Of a stretch of 64,000 nt of DNA, positions 579 to 52,906 are shown piece after piece (position 1 is the first letter of the stretch; each line of letters begins with the position of its first letter). The DNA comes from an uncultured Candidatus Saccharibacteria bacterium. Lineage in GTDB: Bacteria; Patescibacteriota; Saccharimonadia; Saccharimonadales; 2-12-FULL-41-12. Position numbers and translations under genes: made by a program. The notes beneath the pieces are model-generated. The model searched no databases and had not been told where the DNA came from. It worked only from the letters and a program-made list of their open reading frames with translations. The stretch lies in assembly GCA_964573095.1 (NCBI GenBank), contig CAZNIK010000001.1:185004-249003 (forward strand), read 5' to 3'.

Positions 579-1139
579 GTGATGTATGACCTTATCAAAC
601 AAGCAAAATTGACCGCAAAATGTGGCTGGCAAGTAATTGACCGCGATCGGGATTCTGAGACCCTCAAGTCAATCATGGAAAGAAATCCAGATCGTACAGC
701 TCGCATCAATGAGTTATATATGCCCCAAGTGACAGCAGCTTTTGAAAACGGCTTTCAGCGTCAGCAGATTAACCTGCAGCATGAGGATATCAAGGGACGA
801 TTCGTTATGCATACTATCGCGGGGTTGGTCTTTCGAGAGTATGGCTTAGGAGTAATTGGCAGCCTTGAATTAAGAAAATCAATAAAGTCAGCCGAGTGCA
901 CCCGTGCGACGGTAAAAAATCTAGGCACAAGCGCGCTCGAACTTATGCTTGTTGATTCACGCCTTAATGCGAATCTAGGCCCCACTGAACAGACCCGACT
1001 ATCTGAAATTGACCGGGCTCTTCAAGAGGCAAGCCAAACCTCTCATATTGTGTCCTTGCAGGATGAAGAGTTCGTAGCTGCAACTCACCCCGCGATAGCG
1101 TCGCCAGGTATGGTAGCTACTGCAAATTCTTTAGCTTAA
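579..1139 (+). CDS. hypothetical protein (186 aa)
   Basis: Long ORF with GTG at 579 or ATG at 582. Non-repetitive composition, no motif recognised. The 3-prime end overlaps the convergent tmk-thyX gene by 23 nt. Confidence 0.55.
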   Translation: MMYDLIKQAKLTAKCGWQVIDRDRDSETLKSIMERNPDRTARINELYMPQVTAAFENGFQRQQINLQHEDIKGRFVMHTIAGLVFREYGLGVIGSLELRKSIKSAECTRATVKNLGTSALELMLVDSRLNANLGPTEQTRLSEIDRALQEASQTSHIVSLQDEEFVAATHPAIASPGMVATANSLA

Positions 1140-3435
1140 ACTGGGTGTAGCGCTCTGCTGCCAAACGCGCCAGCTCTGGATCTTCGCCTTGATTCACAAA
1201 CTTCATTGCACCCGCAATGAGAGGGTGTGCCTCCTTGAGCTTTTCGTAAATTTTTTGTGTCAATAACCTATAGCCTGGGTGTCCCTGCGGGCTGGTACGT
1301 AGCTCTATAAAATGGAACGCCTCCCTGGCATTAAAGGTCATTTTCCAGCGCATTCTATGCCCAAGTAGCGTGGCATATTGTGCTTCATGGGTGTAGCCTC
1401 CGGCTTGTAGCACGCTGTACAGTTTTAGGCTTAGGTCAAAGCAGGTTTCAAACTTGTCTGTCAGACCAGCCTCTTCAACGAGCGTCGGAACCTCGTACCC
1501 GTAGCGCGGCGTGAGCTGCTGCCAAGCCATGTCGTCAACCATTCTATGGCGCTGTAAATCCCGAAAAATACCATAATCGCACACGATGTCCCAACTGTAG
1601 TGGGCGTTCTCAATCGCTCGGCCCGGACGCTGTCTTCGGTTTAGTCGCTCGCCCATGTACGAGTTGAAGGCCTCAAGCTTTCTTTCGTAGGGCCACTTTG
1701 AAACTTCAGTTTGCAGTTCTTCAAGGGAATGAGAACTATATTCGTATAACATGTTGGGCACTAGATCTATTTCATTTCTGGGCCATACATTCGTGAGCGT
1801 AACTGCCTCGTAAGTCGTGCTGTATGTATCGGGAATATACTTATTCGCAATATTTGCTACTTGCTTTGCCGTTTCTGCGCGATAGGCAACCATTGCGCCC
1901 CCTCTGTCTGGCTTATCAGCTCGCTCCAGGAACATGGGAACAGTTTTTCGGGTTTCAGTTAAAATTTTCTTTCCTGTTTCGTTCGCTTCTACTAGTTCGT
2001 CTGATAACAGGTGCATAATAAGACTTTCGAGGGCCTGTCCTGACGCAAAGATTCCAACAGTCGACTTGGTCGCAACTGGCAAAACTGGACGTACTGCATC
2101 GCAGGCTTGAGCCCTGGTAGCGCCATTCCACGCAGTGTCTTGTTCAGCCTTTGGTACCGAAGAGATGTTGCGCACATACGCCGTTAGGTCATGTACCATG
2201 CTCGAGTATAGGTCAAAAATCTTGTCCATAGTTTTTATATACAGCGCTTTGGTTTCTTGGTCTAAGGTTGTCGGAATAAAGTATTTATATTGGCCCGCCT
2301 CATCCTTCTGATCAAAGTATATGTAGCGAGTTGATTGCTCGAGGTAAGCTGCCAGACGCCCCCACTCAAGCTTTTTGGTGAGCAGATTGCTTGCTCCCTC
2401 GACAACCACGTGCTGTCCGGCGAGCTGCTGAACCGAGTCATCACCGTACGCTGTGATGACTCTTTTGAGTAACTGCTCATCTTTTCCTGCCTCGCCCAGA
2501 AATTCGTCAAGTAGCGTTATCCTCATGTCGTCGCCACGACGGCTGAGTCTGGCCATGGCTGCAGCAATTGTAATCGGACTAATGCTATCATAAAACCCAT
2601 AGACATCACTCTTTGTGTTTGTAACGATTGACTTTAGCGCTTCTTCGCCCGCCTCTGTTATTGCGTAGCGATCATCAATTTTTTCTATCAGCTGATTCTG
2701 GGGAACAACAGCACCTTGCGCGTTCGTGAGTTTGATGTTTTTTGACGACTTGCTTGGCAGTATCGGCATTATTGTCTCCCAAATAATATTATGTATTGTT
2801 TCAATATCAAGAAGTTGATTGTTGCGTACACAGTCAAGTTGCTTGAAGTCCTTCGGGAACAATTGACACAAACTGTCATATACTTCGACGGACTTTTTCA
2901 TGTGATCAAGATCCATTTCGTGCAGATCCCTTTTTTGGGTTGTATAATCCCTGGCTGCCTTCTTATCAACCAGCTTTTGAGCAATTTCTGCGGGCACCCG
3001 AAGCACCAAAGAAAGGTCTGGTCTAGGGATATTCAAAGTCCGAAATTCAATTGCGTCAAGCCACAAGAAATAGCCTTTTCGTTCCTCTACATGATCGAAT
3101 TTGGTTCCTTGATGGGCCATATTTGACCCGGTAAATCGATTCGCCAGAACAATTTTTCCAGCTTCTAGAGCTTGCTTTATTTTGGGAGCTGCTTGGTACC
3201 TATCAAGTGCATAAAATAACGACCCGGTGTACGGCCCAACTTCCTCAGCAGTACCATACTTACCGTTCAGATACTGTTTTACAAAATAACTTGATTCTTG
3301 GTCGTACTGCGGAAAGTCAAAAGTTTCAACCTCATAGCCTTCTAGGGCAAGTTTGTGTGCCAGAAGCTTAAACTGAGTGCCCTTGCCAGAACCGTCAGTC
3401 CCCTCAAGCACAATAAAGATTCCTCTTTGAGTCAT
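1117..3435 (-). CDS. thyX: thymidylate kinase fused to a long two-lobe flavin-dependent thymidylate synthase (ThyX-like), 772 aa
   Basis: N-terminal ~210 aa has the Tmk P-loop FIVLEGTDGSGKGTQ and LDRY. The rest carries ThyX motifs split over two lobes: LEQSTRYIYF in lobe 1; FRDLQRHRM and NAREAFHFIELRTSPQGH in lobe 2. Confidence 0.8.
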   Translation of the reverse strand: MTQRGIFIVLEGTDGSGKGTQFKLLAHKLALEGYEVETFDFPQYDQESSYFVKQYLNGKYGTAEEVGPYTGSLFYALDRYQAAPKIKQALEAGKIVLANRFTGSNMAHQGTKFDHVEERKGYFLWLDAIEFRTLNIPRPDLSLVLRVPAEIAQKLVDKKAARDYTTQKRDLHEMDLDHMKKSVEVYDSLCQLFPKDFKQLDCVRNNQLLDIETIHNIIWETIMPILPSKSSKNIKLTNAQGAVVPQNQLIEKIDDRYAITEAGEEALKSIVTNTKSDVYGFYDSISPITIAAAMARLSRRGDDMRITLLDEFLGEAGKDEQLLKRVITAYGDDSVQQLAGQHVVVEGASNLLTKKLEWGRLAAYLEQSTRYIYFDQKDEAGQYKYFIPTTLDQETKALYIKTMDKIFDLYSSMVHDLTAYVRNISSVPKAEQDTAWNGATRAQACDAVRPVLPVATKSTVGIFASGQALESLIMHLLSDELVEANETGKKILTETRKTVPMFLERADKPDRGGAMVAYRAETAKQVANIANKYIPDTYSTTYEAVTLTNVWPRNEIDLVPNMLYEYSSHSLEELQTEVSKWPYERKLEAFNSYMGERLNRRQRPGRAIENAHYSWDIVCDYGIFRDLQRHRMVDDMAWQQLTPRYGYEVPTLVEEAGLTDKFETCFDLSLKLYSVLQAGGYTHEAQYATLLGHRMRWKMTFNAREAFHFIELRTSPQGHPGYRLLTQKIYEKLKEAHPLIAGAMKFVNQGEDPELARLAAERYTQFKLKNLQ

Positions 3436-3474
3436 GACACTCCCCCCACCCCATAATCTATGGAATAGAGAAGT

Positions 3475-4239
3475 TCAGTCATAGTTCGATAGACCCTCGA
3501 CTTTCAATGGCTTACGACGAACGTCCTTATAGGCTTTCGGAAGCATCTGTTCTGGCTTCCAGTTTGCGATAATTGTAGCCAAATCTGCGCTTTTGCCCGA
3601 CTGATATTTGCCGCTTAAACTCTTGTACTCATCTTCGACTGGTCCTGTCTCATAAAAAACAAGTTGGGCGATTCGTTCGCCAACAGGCAGGACAACACTT
3701 TCGTGCTGGTTCATATTGTAGATTTCCATTGTCCAGCGGTTGATATAGCCAGGGTCACCCCACCCAGCGTCGAGACAAACCGAAATCCCGTTTCTTCCCC
3801 AGGTGCTTCGTGCTTGCATTGTGGTCGTTCCTGGAGCTCGAATACCAATAAACTCGTGCGTATGGGCCAGGATGCGCTCGTGAGGGCGCAGCACGATAAT
3901 CGGTTGAGATGGTGGGATGTTCTTGAAAAGAACTCTCCCGTGCGTTCGGGCCCACTTGGCATGAATTTCTGCTTTCATGGCACCAGAAAAGTACTGCTCA
4001 ACGGCTTTTTCGTCGAATGGATTATAGAAGCCACCTTCGCTCGGTCGTTCAGTTCGATAGTAGTAATGACCCAGCGTCACATCAACACTGCTTCCCGCCA
4101 CGTGCTTTTCAATGTACGGATAAATAACAATGTGCTTGTAGCTCAATGCCTGTCGAATCTGAGTGTTGCTATAAACCGTCAACCAGAACCTCCACTTCTT
4201 ACTCACCCAATTGTAGCCGGGTTTTGGGGTATGAGGCAA
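3475..4239 (-). CDS. dcd: dCTP deaminase / dUTPase-superfamily protein (254 aa, long form)
   Basis: Motifs GSSVDVTLG, ARSTWGRNGISV and DAGWGDPGYINRWTMEIYN are typical of Dcd. It is about 60 aa longer than common Dcd proteins. Confidence 0.8.
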   Translation of the reverse strand: MPHTPKPGYNWVSKKWRFWLTVYSNTQIRQALSYKHIVIYPYIEKHVAGSSVDVTLGHYYYRTERPSEGGFYNPFDEKAVEQYFSGAMKAEIHAKWARTHGRVLFKNIPPSQPIIVLRPHERILAHTHEFIGIRAPGTTTMQARSTWGRNGISVCLDAGWGDPGYINRWTMEIYNMNQHESVVLPVGERIAQLVFYETGPVEDEYKSLSGKYQSGKSADLATIIANWKPEQMLPKAYKDVRRKPLKVEGLSNYD

Positions 4240-4283: not shown

Positions 4284-5309
4284 TTAGTTCAGCACTGAAG
4301 GTTGGATTTTTATTCCAGGTCCCATAGTAGTCGAAATGGTAACAGAGCGTACGTATGAGCTCTTGAGGCTTGCCGGTTTGTTTTGCTTTATGCTTGCCAG
4401 AAGAGCATCAACATTTTGAACAATTTTGCTAGGTCCAAAACTGACTTTTCCTACCCCCACGTGCACTATGCCAGTGCTGTCGACTCTGTACTCAACCCGA
4501 CCGGCTTTTGCGGCCGAAATAGCCTTATTCACATCTTTGGTAACCGTCCCGCTTTTTGGGTTCGGCATTAATCCTTTTGGACCCAAAACGCGCGCGTACT
4601 TACTTAATTTAGCCATGACACTTGGAGTTGCAATCAATACATCAAAATCAATCACTTCTTTATCAAGTTGGGCCAGAAAGTCGGCTTCGCCCGCCACATC
4701 GGCGCCTGCCTTTAGGGCGGCCTTCGCAACATCTTCTTCGGCAAACACCGCAACCCGGACCTTTTTCCCGGTTCCGGCGGGCAATACTAGATTATCTCGA
4801 ATATTTTGATCTGCCTGCCGCGGATCGACGTTTAGACGGATGTGTAGCTCAACAGTTGCATCAAATTTGGTTGTAGACGTTTTTAGCGCAAGAGCGACTG
4901 CCTCGCTCACTTCGTAGAGCTTTTGCGCGTCAACAAGCTTTGCCAGAGCTCGGTACTTCTTTGCTCGTCGCTCTGCACGACTTCTCGTTGGCTTTACTGG
5001 CGCTTTTGGCTTTGGTTGCGACTCCGAGTCGGCCTCAGCTTTTTTTCGGGCTTCCTTCTCAGCTATCTTTTGCTTTTCAGCAACCGCCTTTGCGCTGCGC
5101 TTTCCGGCTTTGGCCGTTGATTTTGCAGCCGCAGTTTCATCATCAATCTGATGCTCTACCTCGACTATCGCCTCCGCAATCGCCTCAGTTTCAACAAGCT
5201 CTGCAATCTTCTCGGTGACTTGCTCTTCTACGATTGATTCTGCTTTTTTCAGTATCTTGTTATCTGCCGGTGTTGATTTGGCAGGTGTCTCTTTTTTTGA
5301 ATCTGACAT
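4284..5309 (-). CDS. rplA: 50S ribosomal protein L1 with a ~110-aa Lys/Ala/Glu-rich N-terminal extension
   Basis: C-terminal 230 aa matches L1 (ATVELHIRLNVDPRQADQNIR, GPKGLMPNPKSGTVT). The N-terminus is low-complexity KAEx-rich. Confidence 0.95.
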   Translation of the reverse strand: MSDSKKETPAKSTPADNKILKKAESIVEEQVTEKIAELVETEAIAEAIVEVEHQIDDETAAAKSTAKAGKRSAKAVAEKQKIAEKEARKKAEADSESQPKPKAPVKPTRSRAERRAKKYRALAKLVDAQKLYEVSEAVALALKTSTTKFDATVELHIRLNVDPRQADQNIRDNLVLPAGTGKKVRVAVFAEEDVAKAALKAGADVAGEADFLAQLDKEVIDFDVLIATPSVMAKLSKYARVLGPKGLMPNPKSGTVTKDVNKAISAAKAGRVEYRVDSTGIVHVGVGKVSFGPSKIVQNVDALLASIKQNKPASLKSSYVRSVTISTTMGPGIKIQPSVLN

Positions 5310-5654: not shown

Positions 5655-6086
5655 CTACTCAATTTCAACACCCATACTTCGCGCAGTTCCGGCAACCATT
5701 TTTTTCACTGCGGCAACGTCGTCGGTGTTCATGTCATTCGCTTTTGTTTCGGCGATTGAGGTAAGGTCTGCATCAGATAGCTTTTTTTCAATTTTTTCGG
5801 TATTTGGTCGGCCTGAGCCTTTTTGTATTCCGAGCTTGGCACGAATTAAATCGTCCGTTGGTGCCCCAACAGTGCGAAACTCCATCGAGCGATCGTCATA
5901 AATGGTTATGTGCGCCGTTACGGTAACGTTTCCAAGATCTCTGGTTGCATCATTAAACGGCCCAATGAAATCCATCATATTTACTCCGTATTGACCAAGC
6001 GTACTCCCCACGGGAGGTGCCGCACTTGCTTTGCCAGCAGGAATTTTCATTTTAAGATTTGCTTTAACTTTTTTGGCATCGGCCAT
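5655..6086 (-). CDS. rplK: 50S ribosomal protein L11
   Basis: KMKIPAGKASAAPPVGSTLGQYGVNMMDF matches the L11 N-terminal domain. Position is after nusG. Confidence 0.97.
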   Translation of the reverse strand: MADAKKVKANLKMKIPAGKASAAPPVGSTLGQYGVNMMDFIGPFNDATRDLGNVTVTAHITIYDDRSMEFRTVGAPTDDLIRAKLGIQKGSGRPNTEKIEKKLSDADLTSIAETKANDMNTDDVAAVKKMVAGTARSMGVEIE

Positions 6087-6482: not shown

Positions 6483-7025
6483 CTATACCCTTTTCACTTG
6501 CAAGCTATCGAGTTCAACGGGTGTTTCACGACCGAACATATTCACTAACACTTTTATCTTGCCTTTAGTTAGATCAATTTCACTAATTGACCCATCGAAT
6601 CCCTTAAACGGACCATCGGTGATATTTACAACTTCGCCTACATTAAAGTCGATTTTGTGCTTTGGCTGTTCAAGCCCCATTCGCTTGTTTATCTTCTCCA
6701 TTTCGTCATCAGATATTGGCGAAGGGTCGATTCCTGTACCCACAAAACCTGTCACATTTGGTGTGTTACGAACAATGTACCACGCGTCCTCTGAAAGTTT
6801 CATATGAACAAGAACGTAGCCTTGAAAAATACGCTTCTCAACGACTTTTCGCTTGCCATTTTTTATTTCGATCATTTTTTCCTTAGGAACAAGTACTTCA
6901 AATATCTTATCCGCCATGTCTAAGCTATCGGCTCTTTGTCGAATGCTTTCGGCAACCTTTTCCTCATACCCACTATACGTGTGAATTGCGTACCACTGCT
7001 TGTGTGAGTCATATCGTTTGCTCAT
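6483..7025 (-). CDS. nusG: transcription termination/antitermination factor NusG
   Basis: KQWYAIHTYSGYEEKV NGN domain and the KOW motif GEVVNITDGPFKGFDGSISEID. Confidence 0.95.
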   Translation of the reverse strand: MSKRYDSHKQWYAIHTYSGYEEKVAESIRQRADSLDMADKIFEVLVPKEKMIEIKNGKRKVVEKRIFQGYVLVHMKLSEDAWYIVRNTPNVTGFVGTGIDPSPISDDEMEKINKRMGLEQPKHKIDFNVGEVVNITDGPFKGFDGSISEIDLTKGKIKVLVNMFGRETPVELDSLQVKRV

Positions 7026-7028
7026 AAT

Positions 7029-7427
7029 TTACAAAATTATCCTTCTAAATATTTTATCTAGTATTAAATCGAGTATTCCCACAAACACGGCAAAGATAAA
7101 CGCAAAAATAAAAACTGCAATCGTCAGCCGAATCGTTTCTTTTCTCGTCGGCCAGGTGACAAGCTTGATTTCAGCCCATGCTTCGCGCAAGAATCTGGGA
7201 ACTAGCCTTACTCTCGTGCCCAAAATCTTACCGGCTCTATTGTCTGGCAACGGTAGATTGTACTCTTTTTTTCCCGTCTTGTGGGCTTTTCGAAGAGGCG
7301 AAACAATGGATGAGGCAGTTGCCTTTAGTCGTCTAGGCTTTGTGGAATCTTGGGTTTTGGTCCTCTCGCGAACGGTGGGCGTTCGACGTATTTTTGCTTT
7401 CTTTTTAGACTCTTCAGCCTGGCCCAT
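7029..7427 (-). CDS. secE: preprotein translocase subunit SecE with a basic N-terminal extension
   Basis: C-terminal EIKLVTWPTRKETIRLTIAVFIFAFIFAVFVGILD is the SecE TM signature. It lies directly upstream of nusG. Confidence 0.85.
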   Translation of the reverse strand: MGQAEESKKKAKIRRTPTVRERTKTQDSTKPRRLKATASSIVSPLRKAHKTGKKEYNLPLPDNRAGKILGTRVRLVPRFLREAWAEIKLVTWPTRKETIRLTIAVFIFAFIFAVFVGILDLILDKIFRRIIL

Positions 7428-44701: not shown

Positions 44702-47700
44702 TTACTGGTCTTCGACAACTTCTTCATCTTCTTGAATGTTGTGTCCTGTACCAACCGGGATTCGACGACCAAGTATTACATTCTCCTTGAGCCCGAATAG
44801 GTGATCAACTTTACCACTGGTAGCGGCCGCAATGAGTACTCGGGTCGTATCTTGGAACGACGCGGCTGAAAGGAACGAATCCGTACTCAACGAGGCCTTG
44901 GTAATACCAAGCAATAACTGATTGTAAACAGCGGGTTCTTTCTTTTGGGCGACGAGTTTCTCGTTTTCGACAACCACCGCAAGCTTACTGACTATGTCGC
45001 CAGTTACAAACTCGCTATCGCCGGCGTCCTCGATTTGTACCCTAGAAAACATCTGACGCACAATTATCTCGAGGTGTTTGTCGGCAATATTTTGGCCTTG
45101 GCTTGCAAAAATACGCAGAATTTCATTCATTATGTATCTTTGGGTTGCCTCGACGCCCTGTAGTCTCATGAGGTCGTGCAAGTTGACTGATCCGTTGGTA
45201 AGTTTTTGCCCGGCAACAACTTCTTGACCGTCTTTGACGAGTATTTGCTTGTAGCCAGGAATCTCGTACTTGATCACGCTCTGTCCAGCGGGGGTAATGG
45301 TAATCACTTTTTTGGTCATGGTAATCTTGCCGGCAACCGGGGCAATAAGCGGACTATCGCCGCCCTCAGCAGCCGCAACAACATCTCCAACCGAAACTTC
45401 GGTGCCGGCTGCAACTTGTGGGGTGCGATCGCCAATTGTTAATTGGGCGACTTTTGCTTTGTCGTCAGTAATCTGGACGACGTAACTATCGCCTTCTTCC
45501 CACACTGCAACTTTACCGGGAATATCCGCAAGAAACGATTTACCCTTTGGCGTTCGGTTCTCAAACAACTCCTCTACTCGAGGCAAACCTTGCGTAATAT
45601 CATCCGCAACTGCCGCACCACCAGAGTGGAAGGTTTTTAGAGTCAACTGTGTTCCAGGCTCACCGATCGACTGAGCAGCAATCACGCCTATTGGACTGTG
45701 GTCGGCAACTAGTTCACCAGTCGCGGGATCAAGTCCATAGCTTTTTCTGTTGACGCCTTTTACGGCACTACAGCTCAGCACGCTCATGATCTTTACGCCG
45801 TCGAGTGCTGAATCACCCTCAATGGCCTTGGCAATTTCTGGCGTGATAAGCGCACCCTTCTTGACATGGGAACCGATGTTTTCGGCTGCGTATCGCCCTG
45901 CGAGGCGAGAAGCATAGTCAATGCCAATCTCCTCTGCATCGCTTCGGAACATTGCAAAACCAGGATCTGGGGCATTTTCTTCGATAGTAAATACGTCTTG
46001 GGCAACGTCAACAAGCCGACGCGTAAGGTAGCCAGAGTCTGCAGTTTTAAGGGCAGTATCGATCAAGCCTTTTCGTTGTCCACGCGTGGAGGTAAAGTAC
46101 TCTAGCGGATTGAGGCCATCGCGGTAATTACTTTTAATTGGAAGCTCCATAGCGCGACCAGTTGCGTCCGACAAAATCCCAACCGAACCGATAACTTGCT
46201 TCACCTGCACAATCGAACCACGCGCTCCAGATACAACTGCCATTGACATGGCGTTATCTTCGCCGGCAAATTGTTCCGATAGTGCAGTCTGGACATCGTT
46301 ATCCGCATCTGTCCAGGTCTCGATCGTTAGTCTATAGCGTTCATCTTCGGTGATAAAGCCCTCATCATACTGACCACTGATCGCCGTAGCTCGTACTTCA
46401 GCCGCTTCCAAAATAGGCTTCAACTTTTTGATGTCGATAAAGTCACTCATGCCCATGGATATTCCAGAGCTTGTAGCACTTCTAAAGCCACGGGTTTTTA
46501 GATCGTCTGCAATTTTTGCACTCTTGTCTTGTCCGTAACGCTGGTACACCTCAGACATGACATTGGCAAGCTTCTTCTTTGTCATGGCGTCGTCTTGGAA
46601 CGGAAAATCTTCTGGGAAGATCTCATTGAACAAAAATCTACCGAGCGTTGATGTGCGTTTTTCGCCCCGAAACGGAATCGTGATCGTGTCTTGGAGCTTA
46701 AGAATTCCTGCGTCATGTGCCATAAGCGCTTCTGCGAGACTGCTATAGGCAACATTTTTCTTGTTATTGCCGGGTCGTTCGTACGTGAGATAGTAACACC
46801 CTAGAACAATATCTTGCTCGATGTGCAGAATCGGGGTTCCATCGGCCGGTTTTAGCAAATTCTTATTTGAAGCCATGATGTCGCGCGCTTCCGCCTGGGC
46901 TTTATCGCTCAAAGGAAGGTGGACAGCCATCTGGTCGCCGTCGAAATCCGCGTTAAACCCTTTACAAACCAAAGGATGGAGCTGAATTGCCTTACCCTCA
47001 ATCAGCACTGGTTGAAACGCTTGTATAGACAGTCGGTGCAGACTCGGCGCACGGTTTAAAAGCACATATTTGTCTTTGATGACTTCGTCCAATGCATCCC
47101 AAACCGCTGTTTCGGCAGTCTCTATCATGCGAGTGGCGCTTCGAATGTTGTGCGCCAGTTCGTTTTGAATAAGTTGACCTATGACGAATGGCTTAAATAG
47201 TTCCAGGGCCATCATTTTTGGTAAACCGCATTGATGCATCTTTAGTTCAGGACCGGCGACGATCACCGAACGACCAGAATAGTCGACCCGTTTGCCGAGT
47301 AGGTTTTGGCGAAATCGGCCTTGCTTCCCCTTTAGCATATCGCTCAAAGACTTGAGACGACGTCGTTGGCCCGTTGCTGCGACCGCCCGGCCACTTCGGG
47401 CCGAACTATTGTCAATCAGCGCATCGACAGCTTCTTGAAGCATTCGCTGTTCATTGCGACGAATTACTTCTGGGGCGTTTAGATCAATCAGCTTCTTGAG
47501 TCGGTTATTTCTGTTAATGACTCGACGATATAAATCATTTAGGTCTGAGGTTGCAAACCTTCCACCGGTCAGCTGTACCATTGGCCGAAGATCTGGGGGG
47601 ATAACTGGCAGTACACTCACGCACATGCTCGAGGGTTTGATGCCAGCGCGCTCCATACTTTCAAGAAGGCGAAGCCGTTTCATAATTTTCTTTTTTCGCT

Positions 47701-48502
47701 GACCCTTTGCTTCGGCGGCTTCGTTGGCAAGATCATCAATAAGCTTCACTAGATCGATTTCCTCAAGCAGCTCTTTTATCGCCGATCCACCCATGCCTAC
47801 TTTTATCATTTTCTGAATGTCATCTGGAAGAGCTCTATAATCATTTTCGCTGAGAAGACGGAGCTTTTCGAGTGACTCAAGCTGCTCTTTGAGCATTTCC
47901 CACTCGGCCTCCACCTCTTCGAGCTCCTTTGTTTGCATTTCGGCCAGCGCCTTCACATTGGCGCCTTCTTTCGCGCCTTCAGCTTCGTATCGAGCTTTTA
48001 TGGCCTCTTGAGCAGCAGCAAATTCGGCCTCTTTGTCTGCCAACATTTGATCGCGTTTCTCGATATCGACGAATTTGATTATGTAGCTTGCAAAATAGGC
48101 CACTCTCTCCAAACTTTTTACTGTCATGCCGAGCAGCAAGCCTACTGCACTTGGAGTACCTCTAAGGAACCAAATATGCGCAACTGGACTTGCCAACTGA
48201 ATATGACCCATTCTTTCGCGACGTACGATTGAACGAGTAACAAGCTCACCGTTTTTATCTACCGCTGCCTCTCTCGAGCGCACGCCTTTGTACTTGGCAT
48301 CATGTGGGTTAATGTCCTTTACAGGTCCAAAAATTCGCTCACAAAACAAACCGTCACGTTCTGGTTTTTGCGTTCGGTAGTTAATGGTCTCTGGTTTTGT
48401 AACCTCACCGTAACTCCAGTCTAAAATGTCGCTTGGACTTGCAACTGCAAGTCGAACTGCATCAAAATCGGCAATATTAGTACCACTGTTATAGCGTCTC
48501 AT
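44702..48502 (-). CDS. rpoC: DNA-directed RNA polymerase beta-prime subunit
   Basis: [12 protein letters not shown] catalytic motif. 1266 aa. The start overlaps the rpoB stop by 4 nt. Confidence 0.99.
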
Positions 48503-51500
48503 TTGAGCTCCTCCTTAACTTCTTCTGCATCCGTCACGACAGTGGTAGCAGGTAAATCGTCTTCTAGTTCCATAACCATGTACTCGTCAACGGCAGCGTC
48601 CTCTGTAACGTCAACGTTACTGGCTTCTGGAGCAGGCACATCCACAGTCGAGAGATTTTCGGCCTCGCCTTTGATGTTTTCTGCGAGTACTTCTTCGGCA
48701 TCAACAACATTGTCACTTACGATCAAGTCCACCTTAAGCCCCAAACCTTGAAGTTCCTTGACGAGCACATTAAAGCTTTCTGGAACTTTAGGACCAACTA
48801 TTTCTGTCTGTTTAATGATCGACTCGTACGCCTTGGATCGGCCATACACATCATCTGATTTGATGGTGAGCATCTCTTGAAGGATATTGCTTGCGCCGTA
48901 AGCTTCGAGTGCCCAGACTTCCATTTCTCCAAAGCGTTGACCACCGTTTTGCGCTTTTCCACCCAGAGGTTGCTGTGTAACCATAGTATAAGGACCGGTC
49001 GAACGAGCATGAATCTTATCTGTTACCATGTGCGTCAACTTAAGCATATACATATTCCCGACAACCGTTCTTTCTTGAAATGCCTCACCGGTTCGGCCGT
49101 CAAAAAGCTGCTGCTTGCCGTCTTCTGGAAAGCCGGCTTTTTTTAGTAGCTCGCCAATTTTTTGGGTATCAACCCCGTCAAAAGAGGGAGTCGCTACCTT
49201 GATGCCAAGTGCCCTCGCCGCCATTCCAAGATGTGTTTCGAAAAGCTGCCCAAGATTCATACGACTTGGCACACCCATCGGGTTGAGAATGATATCTACC
49301 ACCGTACCATCTTCTGAAAATGGCATGTCCTCAACTGGCAAAATTCGGGCAATCACGCCCTTGTTTCCGTGCCGACCGGCGAGCTTGTCGCCAACTTGAA
49401 CCTTTCTCATCTGCGCCACAAATACTTGAATCTGCATGATCACACCAGCCTTTAGCTCGTGCCCATTGGCTCGAGAAAAGATTTTAACGCCCACGACCTT
49501 TCCGTGTTTGCCGTTGCTCATTCGCTGGGAAGTATCTCGAACCTCTTTGGCTTTCTCGCCAAATATTGCTCGAAGTAATCTCTCTTCGCTGGAGAGCTCT
49601 TGCTCGCCCTTTGGAGTAATTTTTCCAACCAAAATATCGCCTGGATGAACTTCCGCGCCAATTCTGACGATGCCATTCTCATCCAGGTGACGCAGCGCAT
49701 CTTCGCTGACATTTGGAATATCGCTGGTGACAATTTCTGGGCCAAGTTTTGTTTCTCTCACCTCGGTCATGTAGTCAACAATGTGGATGCTAGTAAGCTC
49801 ATCGTCCTCAACGAGCTTCCGTGAAATAACCATTGCATCTTCGAAGTTGTAGCCATTCCACGGCATAAACGCGACCAAAAGATCACGACCAAGCGCAAGT
49901 TCGCCAGATTCCATAGACATACCCTCTATCAACACATCGCTTTTTTTCACCTTGTCGCCGGTTTTCACCACAACCCTCTGGTTGATGCAAGTTCCTTCGT
50001 TGCTGCGCACATAGTGCATCGGTCGGTACGTAGCTTTGCGTTTGGCATATTCGACAACCACCTCGTCGGCGCTGGCCTTCTTCACAACTCCGCTTTCTTC
50101 GGCGTACACAATTTGGCCACTGTTTGAGGCAACCACTGACTCGAGACCAGTACCAACAATCGGTGCTTTTGGCTTCACCAACGGAACGGCTTGTTTTTGT
50201 TGGTTTGACCCCACCAATGCACGGTCGACTCGGTCGCGTTCTACAAATGGTACAAGACCGGCAATTGATCCAATTATCTGATTATGGGCTGCATCCATGT
50301 GAGTGACGTCATCGGCGTCAATTTCACCAACGCTAAGACGAGCGCGGGCACTTACCCTATCGTCGATAAAATAACCATTGTCATCAATTGGGTTTCCCGC
50401 ACCAGAAATAATTGCCTTATCCTCATCTGCGGCGCCAAGATACACAATTTCGCTGGTAACTTTTGCCTTAACAGGCCAGGTCACGCGGGACTTCACGCTC
50501 GCCAATTTCTTTGCATCAGCAGCGGTAATTTTGGCACCTTTTTTAACCAACATTTTTCCTTTATCATCCTCAAGATTAGCGCTGGCTATATGGCCGACCG
50601 CGTCTTTGGCGGTTACAGCGTTGATAACCTTCCGGTAAGGAGTTTCTACAAACCCATAGTCGTTAATCCGGGCATAGTTTGCCATATTGAGAACCAGCCC
50701 AATGTTGGCTCCTTCGGGGGTTTCTACAGCGCAAATTCGACCATAGTGCGTCGCATGCGCATCACGAACTTCAAATCCAGCTCGCTCACGCGATAGACCA
50801 CCAGGGCCCATCGAGCTTAGACGTCGCTTGTGGGCAAGTTCCGAAAGAGGGTTAATTTGATCCATGAACTGAGAAAGTTGAGAACTCGCAAAGAACTCTC
50901 TTACTGCCGCCACAACTGGACGGGCGTTAATAAGCTGGCCTGGGGTTACAGTTTCTATCTCGCTCATACTCATGCGGTCCTTGGTGTTGCGCTCCATTCG
51001 AAGCAAACCGATACGAAATTGACGTTGCACGAGTTCTCCGACCAACTTCACGCGCCGGTTCGCCAAGCTGTCGATGTCGTCCGCTGGATCTTGAGTGTTA
51101 TTGAGTCGAACAATCTCACTCACAATCGCAAGCAAGTCTTCGATACGCATAACACGATTTTCGGCAGTGTTTGGAACATCAAGATCAAGTCTCTTGTTAA
51201 TTTTGTAGCGACCGACTCTCGAAAAATCAAAACGCTTGAAGTTATAGAACATGTTCTCGAGCAAGCTTCGAGCGTTATCAACCGTCGCAAGATCGCCCGG
51301 CCGAAGTCGTCGGTATACCTCAATCAGCGCTTCGCTAGTGGTTTTTGAAGGGTCTTTTTCCAAAGTTAACTCAAGATAGCTCGATTTCCCTTGGTCGACA
51401 TGCTTCAACTCATCCTTCATTTGTGCTTCGCTCAGCCCAAGCGCCCGGAGCAGGGTGGTAACGGGTATTTTGCGCTTACGGTCAATTTTTACAAATAACG

Positions 51501-52032
51501 CACCATTCGCGGCCGTCTCAAACTCTAACCATGCACCGCGTCCAGGAATGACTTTCGCACCATATAGATTTCTGCCACCTACAAGCTCAGAGGTAAAAAA
51601 CACACCAGCTGACCGTATGAGCTGGCTGACTACAACTCGTTCAGCGCCGTTGATGACGAAGGTTCCACGATCAGTCATCCAGGGAAAATCACCCAAGTAG
51701 ATCTCGTGTTCCTTTACTTCACCTGTAACCTTGTTGGTAAGCTCAACTTTAGCTTTGAGCGGCGCCTCATAGCTGATGTTATTTTCTCTCGCTTCAGCCT
51801 CGGTGGTTTTTGGATCCTCGAAGTGATAATCCTTAAACCGAAGTGATAGTTTTGTTCCAGTATAGTCATCAATTGGACTAATCTCGGCGAGTAGCTCACC
51901 CAGACCTTCGTCTACAAACCACTGCCATGAGCGATTTTGGTGGTCGACTAGATTAGGCAAATCTATGACTGGTTGATTATTCGTAAAATACGTGCGCTTT
52001 TTAGCCGTTGGGGCTGTGGTGCTTTTTGCCAT
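48499..52032 (-). CDS. rpoB: DNA-directed RNA polymerase beta subunit
   Basis: GRHGNKGVIARILP, QRFGEMEVWALEAYGA. 1177 aa. Confidence 0.99.
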   Translation of the reverse strand: MAKSTTAPTAKKRTYFTNNQPVIDLPNLVDHQNRSWQWFVDEGLGELLAEISPIDDYTGTKLSLRFKDYHFEDPKTTEAEARENNISYEAPLKAKVELTNKVTGEVKEHEIYLGDFPWMTDRGTFVINGAERVVVSQLIRSAGVFFTSELVGGRNLYGAKVIPGRGAWLEFETAANGALFVKIDRKRKIPVTTLLRALGLSEAQMKDELKHVDQGKSSYLELTLEKDPSKTTSEALIEVYRRLRPGDLATVDNARSLLENMFYNFKRFDFSRVGRYKINKRLDLDVPNTAENRVMRIEDLLAIVSEIVRLNNTQDPADDIDSLANRRVKLVGELVQRQFRIGLLRMERNTKDRMSMSEIETVTPGQLINARPVVAAVREFFASSQLSQFMDQINPLSELAHKRRLSSMGPGGLSRERAGFEVRDAHATHYGRICAVETPEGANIGLVLNMANYARINDYGFVETPYRKVINAVTAKDAVGHIASANLEDDKGKMLVKKGAKITAADAKKLASVKSRVTWPVKAKVTSEIVYLGAADEDKAIISGAGNPIDDNGYFIDDRVSARARLSVGEIDADDVTHMDAAHNQIIGSIAGLVPFVERDRVDRALVGSNQQKQAVPLVKPKAPIVGTGLESVVASNSGQIVYAEESGVVKKASADEVVVEYAKRKATYRPMHYVRSNEGTCINQRVVVKTGDKVKKSDVLIEGMSMESGELALGRDLLVAFMPWNGYNFEDAMVISRKLVEDDELTSIHIVDYMTEVRETKLGPEIVTSDIPNVSEDALRHLDENGIVRIGAEVHPGDILVGKITPKGEQELSSEERLLRAIFGEKAKEVRDTSQRMSNGKHGKVVGVKIFSRANGHELKAGVIMQIQVFVAQMRKVQVGDKLAGRHGNKGVIARILPVEDMPFSEDGTVVDIILNPMGVPSRMNLGQLFETHLGMAARALGIKVATPSFDGVDTQKIGELLKKAGFPEDGKQQLFDGRTGEAFQERTVVGNMYMLKLTHMVTDKIHARSTGPYTMVTQQPLGGKAQNGGQRFGEMEVWALEAYGASNILQEMLTIKSDDVYGRSKAYESIIKQTEIVGPKVPESFNVLVKELQGLGLKVDLIVSDNVVDAEEVLAENIKGEAENLSTVDVPAPEASNVDVTEDAAVDEYMVMELEDDLPATTVVTDAEEVKEELK

Positions 52033-52272: not shown

Positions 52273-52860
52273 TTAAGAAACAGCCTCTATGATTTTATCG
52301 ACGACCCCGTACTTTTTTGCTTCTTCGGAGGTCATCCAAAAGTCTCGCTCCATGTCAACGTGTATCTTGCTCAGCTTTTGACCGGTGTTTTTGGCCATAA
52401 TCTCCTCAAGCAATTTTTTTACCCGAAGCGATTCTCGAAGGTCTATCTCTTGATCGGTGACTTTTCCGCGGGTGCCACTTGACGGTTGGTGGATCATCAC
52501 CGTTGCGTGTTCAAGCAAATGGCGTTTGCCTTTTTTGCCGCTGGATAGCAAGAATGCCGCGGCACTCGCTTGAACGCCGATACCATAGGTTGCTACATCG
52601 GGTTGAATAAATTGCATGGTGTCGTAAACCGCTAACGCGTCATAAACACTGCCGCCAGGGCTATTTATATAAAACGATATGTCCTTTTTTGGATCTTCAT
52701 TTGCCAAAAATAGCAGTTGGGCAACAATGAGATTTGCAGTATGTTCGTTCACGTCAGTTCCCAAAAAGATTATTCTGTCTTTTAGAAGCCGACTGTAGAT
52801 ATCGTATGCCCGCTCAATGCGACCTTCTTGTTCAATAACTGTTGGAATAAGTACGCTCAT
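52273..52860 (-). CDS. clpP: ATP-dependent Clp protease proteolytic subunit
   Basis: [34 protein letters not shown]. Ser ([11 protein letters not shown]), His (MIHQP) and Asp (ERDFWM) are retained. The ATG at 52860 is preferred over the track GTG at 52890. Confidence 0.93.
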
Positions 52861-52906
52861 AGTTAAAGAGTATATCCCCAAAATTAGCACTCGTCAACTT
52901 AGAGTG

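Follow-up and report, generated by a model that had tools for sequence, protein, structure and literature searches.

A 64,000-nucleotide stretch of the genome of an uncultured Candidatus Saccharibacteria bacterium (contig CAZNIK010000001.1, positions 185,004 to 249,003, assembly GCA_964573095.1; hereafter the window) carries a gene, tmk::thyX, in which a thymidylate kinase (Tmk) domain is fused to a double-length region of the flavin-dependent thymidylate synthase (ThyX) family. We consider it likely that the product is a bifunctional enzyme, a deoxythymidine monophosphate (dTMP) kinase tethered to a duplicated ThyX with a split active site, and that it acts beside a Dcd-family supplier of deoxyuridine nucleotides. 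The N-terminal 230 residues would form a flexibly tethered dTMP kinase of the Mycobacterium type, converting dTMP to deoxythymidine diphosphate (dTDP), and the C-terminal 527 residues would form a tandem-duplicated ThyX. The parts belong to known enzyme families, and the window instance is typical of a large family that has already been sequenced. The mechanistic interest of the fusion lies in the split active site, the predicted halving of the number of sites, and the tethered kinase.

A sequence-only reading of this DNA had described a single open reading frame (ORF) of 772 residues joining Tmk to two ThyX lobes with split motifs, next to a Dcd-family gene. The ORF is indeed uninterrupted (1117-3435), and matches above the Pfam gathering scores were found for PF02223 and, twice, for PF02511 in the fusion and for PF22769 in the adjoining gene. 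All of the motifs quoted in that reading were located: the P-loop GTDGSGKGT at residues 12 to 20 of the kinase, LEQSTRY at residues 365 to 371 of lobe 1, and RHR at residues 629 to 631 and F-x-ELR (here FIELR) at residues 709 to 713 of lobe 2. The fusion gene and its parts are laid out as follows.

1117..3435, minus strand: tmk::thyX fusion gene, a single uninterrupted ORF of 772 residues plus stop
2746..3435, minus strand: thymidylate kinase domain of the Mycobacterium tuberculosis TMPK type, residues 1 to 230 of the fusion
2701..2745, minus strand: interdomain linker, predicted to be disordered, residues 231 to 245 (predicted local distance difference test score [pLDDT] of <50)
1816..2700, minus strand: ThyX lobe 1, residues ~246 to 540, with matches to Pfam Thy1 and, by profile, to M. 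tuberculosis ThyX
1120..1815, minus strand: ThyX lobe 2, residues 541 to 772, with matches to Pfam Thy1 and, by profile, to PBCV-1 and Thermotoga maritima ThyX

Domains of the fusion protein

The kinase domain is recognized by both sequence and predicted structure. Pfam Thymidylate_kin covers residues 10 to 201 of the full protein (E value of 7e-18; 65.4 bits for PF02223 against a gathering score of 27), and the kinase piece scanned alone gives an E value of 5e-19. The best match by sequence and structure is the M. tuberculosis thymidylate kinase (TMPK; 1g3u/4unn), with which residues 7 to 189 align end to end (E value of 1e-18; TMt of ~0.83). Shared with this enzyme are the P-loop, the FP.Y motif, the LDR arginine, a second arginine plus Asn, and an R-D-x-x-E-x-D segment; unlike it, the window kinase is the N-terminal domain of a 772-residue protein. 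A full-length AlphaFold model (m2286db50c19d) has a mean pLDDT of 85.5 and a predicted template modeling score (pTM) of 0.63, and its top 50 Foldseek matches in the PDB were all Tmk structures (TMt of 0.83 to 0.88). Residues E11, D14, K18, F41, P42, Y44, R79, R100, N105, R169, D170, and E173 are almost invariant in 120 fusion proteins and align with the corresponding residues of M. tuberculosis TMPK. Because the P-loop and other nucleotide-binding residues are conserved in this way, the kinase is likely to be active.

Each half of the synthase region was assigned separately to the ThyX family. Pfam Thy1 matches the full protein in two stretches (E value of 3e-35; 122.2 bits), and the lobes scanned individually both exceed the gathering score of 24.8, with 60.3 bits for lobe 1 (residues 289 to 500; E value of 2.9e-16) and 67.0 bits for lobe 2 (residues 592 to 738; E value of 2.5e-18). 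Single-sequence searches of each lobe against PDB sequences found no ThyX. Profiles built for each lobe from 21 relatives did reach solved ThyX structures: that of lobe 1 aligns residue by residue with residues 62 to 228 of M. tuberculosis ThyX (2af6/3gwc; E value of 1e-7), and that of lobe 2 matches ThyX of PBCV-1 (4fzb/2cfa; E value of 2e-3) and T. maritima (1kq4). When residues 246 to 772 were modeled alone, the pLDDT of 90.5 and pTM of 0.85 confidently predicted that the two lobes pack as one rigid body. All of the top 50 PDB matches to this C-terminal model in Foldseek were ThyX (probability of 1.0; TMt of 0.60 to 0.71). Since each ThyX match covers ~225 of 527 columns, no solved structure spans both lobes.

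The fusion gene is genuine. Among 5.8 billion proteins searched was a 100% identical 772-residue protein on an independent 16.6-kb contig, together with 119 further full-length relatives of 759 to 795 residues (68 to 77% identity), all with both Pfam domains. A scan of one genome per species gave at least 596 matching stretches, the best 80 of which were taken as loci L001 to L080. Almost all of the first 55 are from Saccharibacteria metagenome-assembled genomes (MAGs), most matching over residues ~3 to 771. A survey of candidate phyla radiation genomes had been proposed with the sequence-only reading, and after ORFs were rederived, ~44 complete Saccharibacteria loci had a single ORF of 724 to 812 residues. 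The suspicion of such an organism was right, the relatives being Candidatus Saccharibacteria/Saccharimonadales. That reading had also named a sequencing or assembly frameshift joining separate tmk and thyX genes as a result that would overturn it, an explanation with some footing in the few divergent lineages where the two genes are adjacent but separate (see below), and one that we reject as practically excluded by the identical protein on an independent contig, the 119 two-domain relatives, the ~44 single-ORF loci from independent assemblies, and a linker region that stays in frame and can be aligned.

Full-text searches of the literature turned up no description of a Tmk-ThyX fusion, of ThyX in Saccharibacteria, or of tandem ThyX domains. 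The suggestion that the fusion is uncharacterized therefore holds for the literature, and the protein has apparently never been studied experimentally, but automated public pipelines already annotate it. The JGI label of its relatives, "thymidylate kinase/thymidylate synthase ThyX," names the architecture outright. The NCBI label is [quoted passage not shown] (FAD, flavin adenine dinucleotide), which is often the sole name of the fusion and hides the kinase.

Active-site residues divided between two lobes

The ThyX active site of M. tuberculosis is assembled from three subunits, with R95-H96-R97 and R199 contributed by subunit A, S71 and R190 by subunit B, and R87, S105, R107, and Y108 by subunit C (PMC6514825). 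The numbering of our alignment between lobe 1 and M. tuberculosis ThyX reproduces the residue numbers of that review. Lobe 1 keeps E366 and the equivalents of S71 (S334), R97 (R360), S105 (S368), R107 (R370), Y108 (Y371), and R172 (R449). It lacks the first two residues of RHR, with W358 and G359 at M. tuberculosis positions 95 and 96, as well as the NxR and LR arginines (S465, Q467, and L476), with Q at position 190 and L at position 199. Lobe 2 keeps R629-H630-R631, N702 and R704 of N-A-R (the latter equivalent to R190), R713 of E-L-R (equivalent to R199), and H719. It lacks the S-x-R-Y loop, with Q639, L641, and T642 in place of S105, R107, and Y108 and with Y687 in place of R172, and the loop after RHR is rewritten and 3 residues shorter. 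The signature of single-domain ThyX, R-H-R-x(7)-S-x-R-Y, is thus found in neither lobe (lobe 1 reads W-G-R...S-T-R-Y and lobe 2 reads R-H-R...Q-Q-L-T) and is complete only across both lobes taken together. A "TPRY" string in lobe 2 was considered as a second S-x-R-Y and rejected; it aligns with "GQYKY" of lobe 1 and with the segment following the motif in M. tuberculosis ThyX, and it is variable in stand-alone forms.

This complementary pattern is widely conserved. We carried out a residue census of 262 proteins, made up of 120 Saccharibacteria fusions, 22 diverse representatives, and 120 stand-alone proteins of Acidimicrobiia. The S-x-R-Y of lobe 1 and the RHR, NxR, and LR residues of lobe 2 showed little or no variation in any of the three groups, whose members are only 39 to 77% identical to the window protein.

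The mapping suggests that one chain would imitate two different ThyX subunits. With its RHR, NxR, and LR arginine, lobe 2 would provide the residues that bind FAD and uracil, taking the role of subunit A and probably that of subunit B, and lobe 1 would supply the loop E..S.RY, which forms the lid and binds the phosphate of deoxyuridine monophosphate (dUMP), in the role of subunit C. A dimer of such chains would then rebuild a ThyX-like pseudo-tetramer with two complete and two vestigial sites, not four. Compared with the canonical homotetrameric ThyX, or FDTS (T. maritima TM0449, 1o26; M. tuberculosis Rv2754c, 2af6/3gwc), each lobe has the same fold, and the two lobes combined have the same catalytic residues apart from R87. 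The fusion protein differs from canonical ThyX in its two incomplete domains per chain, in the division of RHR...S.RY between them, in the kinase attached at the N terminus, and in its predicted assembly, a dimer with two composite sites instead of a tetramer with four. The long ThyX of chlamydiae (~530 residues) is possibly another double-length ThyX, and we know of no kinase fusion for it. Chlamydial ThyX sequences are too divergent to have been included in ThyX phylogenies (PMC6171736).

Gene neighborhood and probable kinase-synthase coupling

The dcd gene and the short elements around it are listed below; the ribosome-binding site and the G-rich run were read off the sequence.

3475..4182, minus strand: dcd, encoding a Dcd-family protein (dCTP deaminase/dUTPase superfamily; dCTP and dUTP, deoxycytidine and deoxyuridine triphosphate), revised to 235 residues; the mechanical ORF is 3475-4239 (254 residues)
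4189..4193, minus strand: GGAGG ribosome-binding site, 6 nt before the revised TTG start of dcd (4180-4182)
4210..4239, minus strand: weak sigma-70-like promoter match, TTGCCT-18-TACAAT, agreeing with the consensus at only 9 of 12 positions
3441..3450, minus strand: G-rich Shine-Dalgarno-like run, GGTGGGGGGA, 5 nt 5' of the ATG of the fusion gene

The sequence-only reading had placed dcd immediately downstream of the fusion gene. As both genes lie on the minus strand, dcd is in fact immediately upstream, its stop codon separated from the ATG of the fusion gene by 39 nt. The protein matches PF22769 with 112.3 bits against a gathering score of 27 (E value of 2.9e-32). Homologues identified by tblastn in 42 related loci begin M/L/V-G-V-Y-S-N, and their matches start at residue 20 of the window ORF, within ~2 residues in most cases. 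Because these matches begin there and GGAGG lies 6 nt before it, the sequence identifies the TTG at 4182 as the true start of dcd, and the mechanical ORF finder miscalled it; the protein has 235 residues, not 254. Roughly 19 of the ~60 residues by which Dcd had been said to exceed the usual length are accounted for by this wrong start. Compared with 4xjc, the extra length consists of an insertion of ~26 residues between aligned residues 65 and 107 and a C-terminal tail of ~26 residues, W.P..MLP[RK]AYKD.R, which is kept in all Saccharibacteria homologues.

The closest solved relative of Dcd is 4xjc of B. halodurans (177 residues; E value of 6.9e-17), followed by M. jannaschii 1ogh (2e-6) and M. 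tuberculosis 2qxx (1.4e-5), with E. coli Dcd (1xs1) reaching only 8e-3. The motifs A-R-S-T-W-G-R, G-W-G-D-P-G-Y, and T-M-E-I align with those of 4xjc and 1ogh, and they retain the catalytic Ser and Arg of R-S-x-x-G-R, the Asp of G-W-x-D-P-G, and the Glu of T-x-E. Although 4xjc belongs to the same superfamily and shares these motifs, it lacks the internal insertion. The window Dcd scores higher against 4xjc, against 2qxx, and against entries deposited as "bifunctional" or "dUMP-forming," such as 1ogh ("bifunctional deaminase/diphosphatase"), than against E. coli Dcd. It would supply a deoxyuridine nucleotide from dCTP, namely, dUMP directly should the enzyme be bifunctional and dUTP otherwise.

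Gene order in the window runs secE (7029-7427), nusG (6483-7025), rplK (5655-6086), rplA (4284-5309), dcd, and tmk::thyX, which marks this stretch as a core region of the chromosome. The last two would form a housekeeping gene pair, probably cotranscribed, that closes the secE-nusG-rplK-rplA cluster on a Saccharibacteria (TM7) chromosome. About 40 Saccharibacteria loci share the order nusG-rplK-rplA-dcd-tmk::thyX, with dcd directly upstream of the fusion. Unfused arrangements occur in divergent Saccharibacteria. In L043 and L045, tmk is followed by an adjacent two-lobe thyX gene (thyX2) in a different frame; in L046, thyX2 stands alone after nusG-rplK; and in L051, tmk and dcd neighbor a stand-alone thyX2 but are encoded on the opposite strand. 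The conserved synteny and the lineages with adjacent, separate tmk and thyX2 strongly support the proposal, made in the sequence-only reading, of a compact two-gene module for deoxythymidine triphosphate (dTTP) precursors.

Two types of Tmk are fused to ThyX2 modules, each 63 to 72% identical to that of the window. The window class has the P-loop GTDGSGKG and is M. tuberculosis-like. The second class (P-loop GPEGVGKT) makes up the N-terminal ~240 residues of the fusion ORFs in L022 to L039, L044, L047, L050, L052, and L055; it is 23 to 31% identical to the window Tmk or undetectable by tblastn, and Pfam still assigns it to Thymidylate_kin. The presence of two kinase classes on similar ThyX modules suggests either that the kinase domain was replaced or that the fusion arose twice independently.

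The sequence-only reading went further and proposed that the covalent link channels dTMP directly from the synthase site to the kinase site. The retention of a fusion of consecutive steps in many lineages, even with two types of Tmk, speaks for channeling in that it implies a selective benefit from physical linkage. The bifunctional dihydrofolate reductase-thymidylate synthase (DHFR-TS) of protozoa and plants, a covalent fusion of consecutive thymidylate enzymes, is the classical example discussed in connection with channeling. The resemblance to tmk::thyX is one of analogy only, as the folds are unrelated and the partners are ThyA and DHFR, not ThyX and Tmk. Against channeling, the linker (residues 231 to 245) is predicted to be disordered and varies in length and sequence in the alignment of relatives, and pTM falls from 0.85 for the ThyX region alone to 0.63 for the full-length protein. 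The disordered linker and this fall in pTM mean that neither a confident interdomain geometry nor a fixed kinase-synthase interface is predicted. The unfused arrangements are, moreover, viable. Direct channeling is therefore possible but unsupported by the models, and we think it unlikely that the fusion exists for this purpose rather than for coexpression or stoichiometry. If there is a kinetic or other advantage, fixed 1:1 stoichiometry and proximity would more likely provide it than a sealed channel.

Several features of the surrounding sequence were recorded alongside the module. The TTG at 4239, the mechanical start of dcd, falls inside the -35-like hexamer of the weak match at 4210-4239. 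This match could be a promoter for dcd-tmk::thyX, although the promoter/terminator scan was uninformative on this point, the number of promoter-like sites in the region being not above chance. One terminator-like hairpin lies ~170 nt 3' of the fusion gene (minus strand, 948-925), within a putative 186-residue ORF (579-1139, plus strand, GTG start) that runs toward the fusion gene and shares 23 nt with its 3' end. This ORF had no match in Pfam or NCBIfam. Ribosomal protein L1 (4284-5309, minus strand) has 341 residues, of which only 142 to 331 match the Pfam L1 domain, preceded by an N-terminal extension of ~130 residues rich in Lys, Ala, and Glu. In a related genome (L083), L1 has 318 residues, and the extension may be a lineage feature. 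Related genomes such as L083 also have rplJ-rplL directly 3' of the fusion gene, a pair that is absent downstream of the fusion in the window. About 45 kb from the fusion are minus-strand ORFs of 1,266 and 1,177 residues (44702-52032), with a 205-residue ORF just upstream (52273-52890). The two long ORFs could be rpoC and rpoB with rplJ nearby, implying a local rearrangement.

Relatives, alternatives, and implications

Several observations weigh against reading tmk::thyX as a bifunctional enzyme with a composite ThyX site. Scores fall below the NCBIfam equivalog cutoffs for the kinase (121.3 against 193 for the best model, NF005923, mycobacterial-type dTMP kinase, E value of 3.6e-35, and 63.4 against 83.25 for TIGR00041), for ThyX (51 against 87.9 for TIGR02170), and, narrowly, for Dcd (89.8 against 92.8 bits for TIGR02274), which marks all three as divergent family members. 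In the kinase, the D-R-Y/H motif of Tmk reads N-R-F, with Asn99 in place of Asp, and His108 replaces Y103 of M. tuberculosis TMPK, both family-wide. Profiles of lobe 1 and lobe 2 did not match each other significantly (E value of 0.11); support for an internal ThyX duplication comes from the Pfam and fold matches, not from direct similarity between the lobes. R87 of M. tuberculosis ThyX has an equivalent in neither lobe (Asn in lobe 1 and Tyr in lobe 2), all other site residues being present somewhere in the chain. The equivalent of S71 is found only in lobe 1 (lobe 2 has an invariant R606) and that of R190 only in lobe 2, so the role of subunit B does not appear to be cleanly assigned to one lobe. 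The two-site pseudo-tetramer, in turn, is deduced from residue mapping and one published description of the site, not from a modeled complex. Lastly, many relatives lack the ThyX motifs, which makes domain decay possible in the wider family.

The extent of this loss was seen in a HMMER scan of 1.84 billion representatives clustered at 50% identity, which returned 1,231 proteins with E values up to 1e-30. When the best 150 were examined for motifs, only 22 kept both EQSTRY and RDLQRHR, and ~120 lacked both; the window protein is in the minority that keeps the catalytic residues. In most of the motif-less representatives, a Tmk domain at the N terminus precedes a ThyX-like region with just 25 to 45% identity, and those tested gave a weak Pfam Thy1 signal or none. 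In the decayed relatives (among proteins P0122 to P0270, for example P0123, P0125, P0132, and P0192, and at loci L083, 6001-7983, and L081, 6001-8283), Tmk is well conserved, RHR has become RNQ, HYH, KYK, and the like, and QSTRY is lost. One of them, P0192, lies in the context secE-nusG-rplK-orf-rplA-dcd-[gene]-rplJ-rplL, the same position as the window gene, and it therefore looks like an ortholog with a decayed synthase half. Another, P0125, adjoins a DHFR gene, which would fit replacement of ThyX by the folate-cycle enzyme ThyA. By sequence, the synthase half of these motif-less relatives appears to be a retained pseudo-enzyme domain.

The two-lobe module also occurs without a kinase. Many Acidimicrobiia encode a two-lobe ThyX of ~538 residues with 39 to 42% identity to the window protein over residues ~255 to 767 (loci L056 to L080, from Acidimicrobiia, Microthrix, and Nitriliruptoraceae). 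These proteins are annotated as "FAD-dependent thymidylate synthase" and have the same architecture and the identical division of catalytic residues as the fusion, from which they differ in lacking the kinase domain. No tmk or dcd was detected in the 6-kb flanks of these loci.

Decay in the wider family raises the alternative that only the kinase of the window protein is active, the ThyX-like region being a dead scaffold and dTMP coming from ThyA or salvage. The ~120 of 150 representatives that have lost both motifs while mostly keeping Tmk, their faint Thy1 signal, the motif-less protein in the same rplA-dcd-[gene]-rplJ position, and the absence of a complete ThyX motif from either lobe alone would all fit such a scaffold. 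We nevertheless regard it as improbable for the window protein, in which, as in 261 relatives, the residues for one composite site are invariant. Such invariance among proteins only 39 to 77% identical argues that purifying selection has acted to preserve catalysis rather than a scaffold, and the kinase-less form in Acidimicrobiia is annotated as a thymidylate synthase in its own right.

Slightly less probable still is a change of specificity, whereby the flavin-dependent reaction of the two-lobe module would modify C5 of some pyrimidine nucleotide other than dUMP or yield something other than dTMP. The module is certainly very divergent, since single-sequence searches with it miss all solved ThyX and it falls below the TIGR02170 cutoff, and the missing counterpart of R87 and the shortened, rewritten loop after RHR in lobe 2 also speak for such a change. 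However, the M. tuberculosis residues that contact dUMP or cover the reactive C5/N5 are all kept (S105, R107, Y108, R95, and R199). The covalently attached dTMP kinase and the adjoining dCTP deaminase-family gene in ~40 genomes also fit a route from dUMP to dTMP to dTDP, and a bifunctional Tmk-ThyX remains the reading that we prefer.

Both halves of the fusion have apparent actinobacterial affinities, the synthase to the two-lobe ThyX of Acidimicrobiia and the kinase to the mycobacterial TMPK type. Saccharibacteria live as epibionts of Actinomycetota, and these affinities together with the epibiont habit point to possible gene exchange between the two groups. A combined scenario can tentatively be drawn, though we hold it with less confidence than the bifunctional enzyme itself. 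Duplication would have been followed by complementary loss of half-sites, leaving a dimer with exactly two composite sites tethered 1:1 to a kinase; the sharing of module and kinase with Actinomycetota would reflect exchange; and in many related Patescibacteria the synthase half would have decayed but been kept on the kinase.

Humans have no ThyX, and the enzyme is a target for antibacterials. Because three identical subunits contribute to its active site, the role of each has been hard to dissect. If the two lobes of a single chain do fix these roles, they would permit asymmetric mutagenesis, and the fusion would offer a direct test of the number of sites that a ThyX assembly needs. For Saccharibacteria, epibionts with reduced genomes, the steps from deoxycytidine nucleotide through deoxyuridine nucleotide and dTMP to dTDP would be kept in two genes inside a ribosomal protein cluster. 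The retention of these last dTTP-precursor steps bears on what Saccharibacteria must obtain from their hosts.

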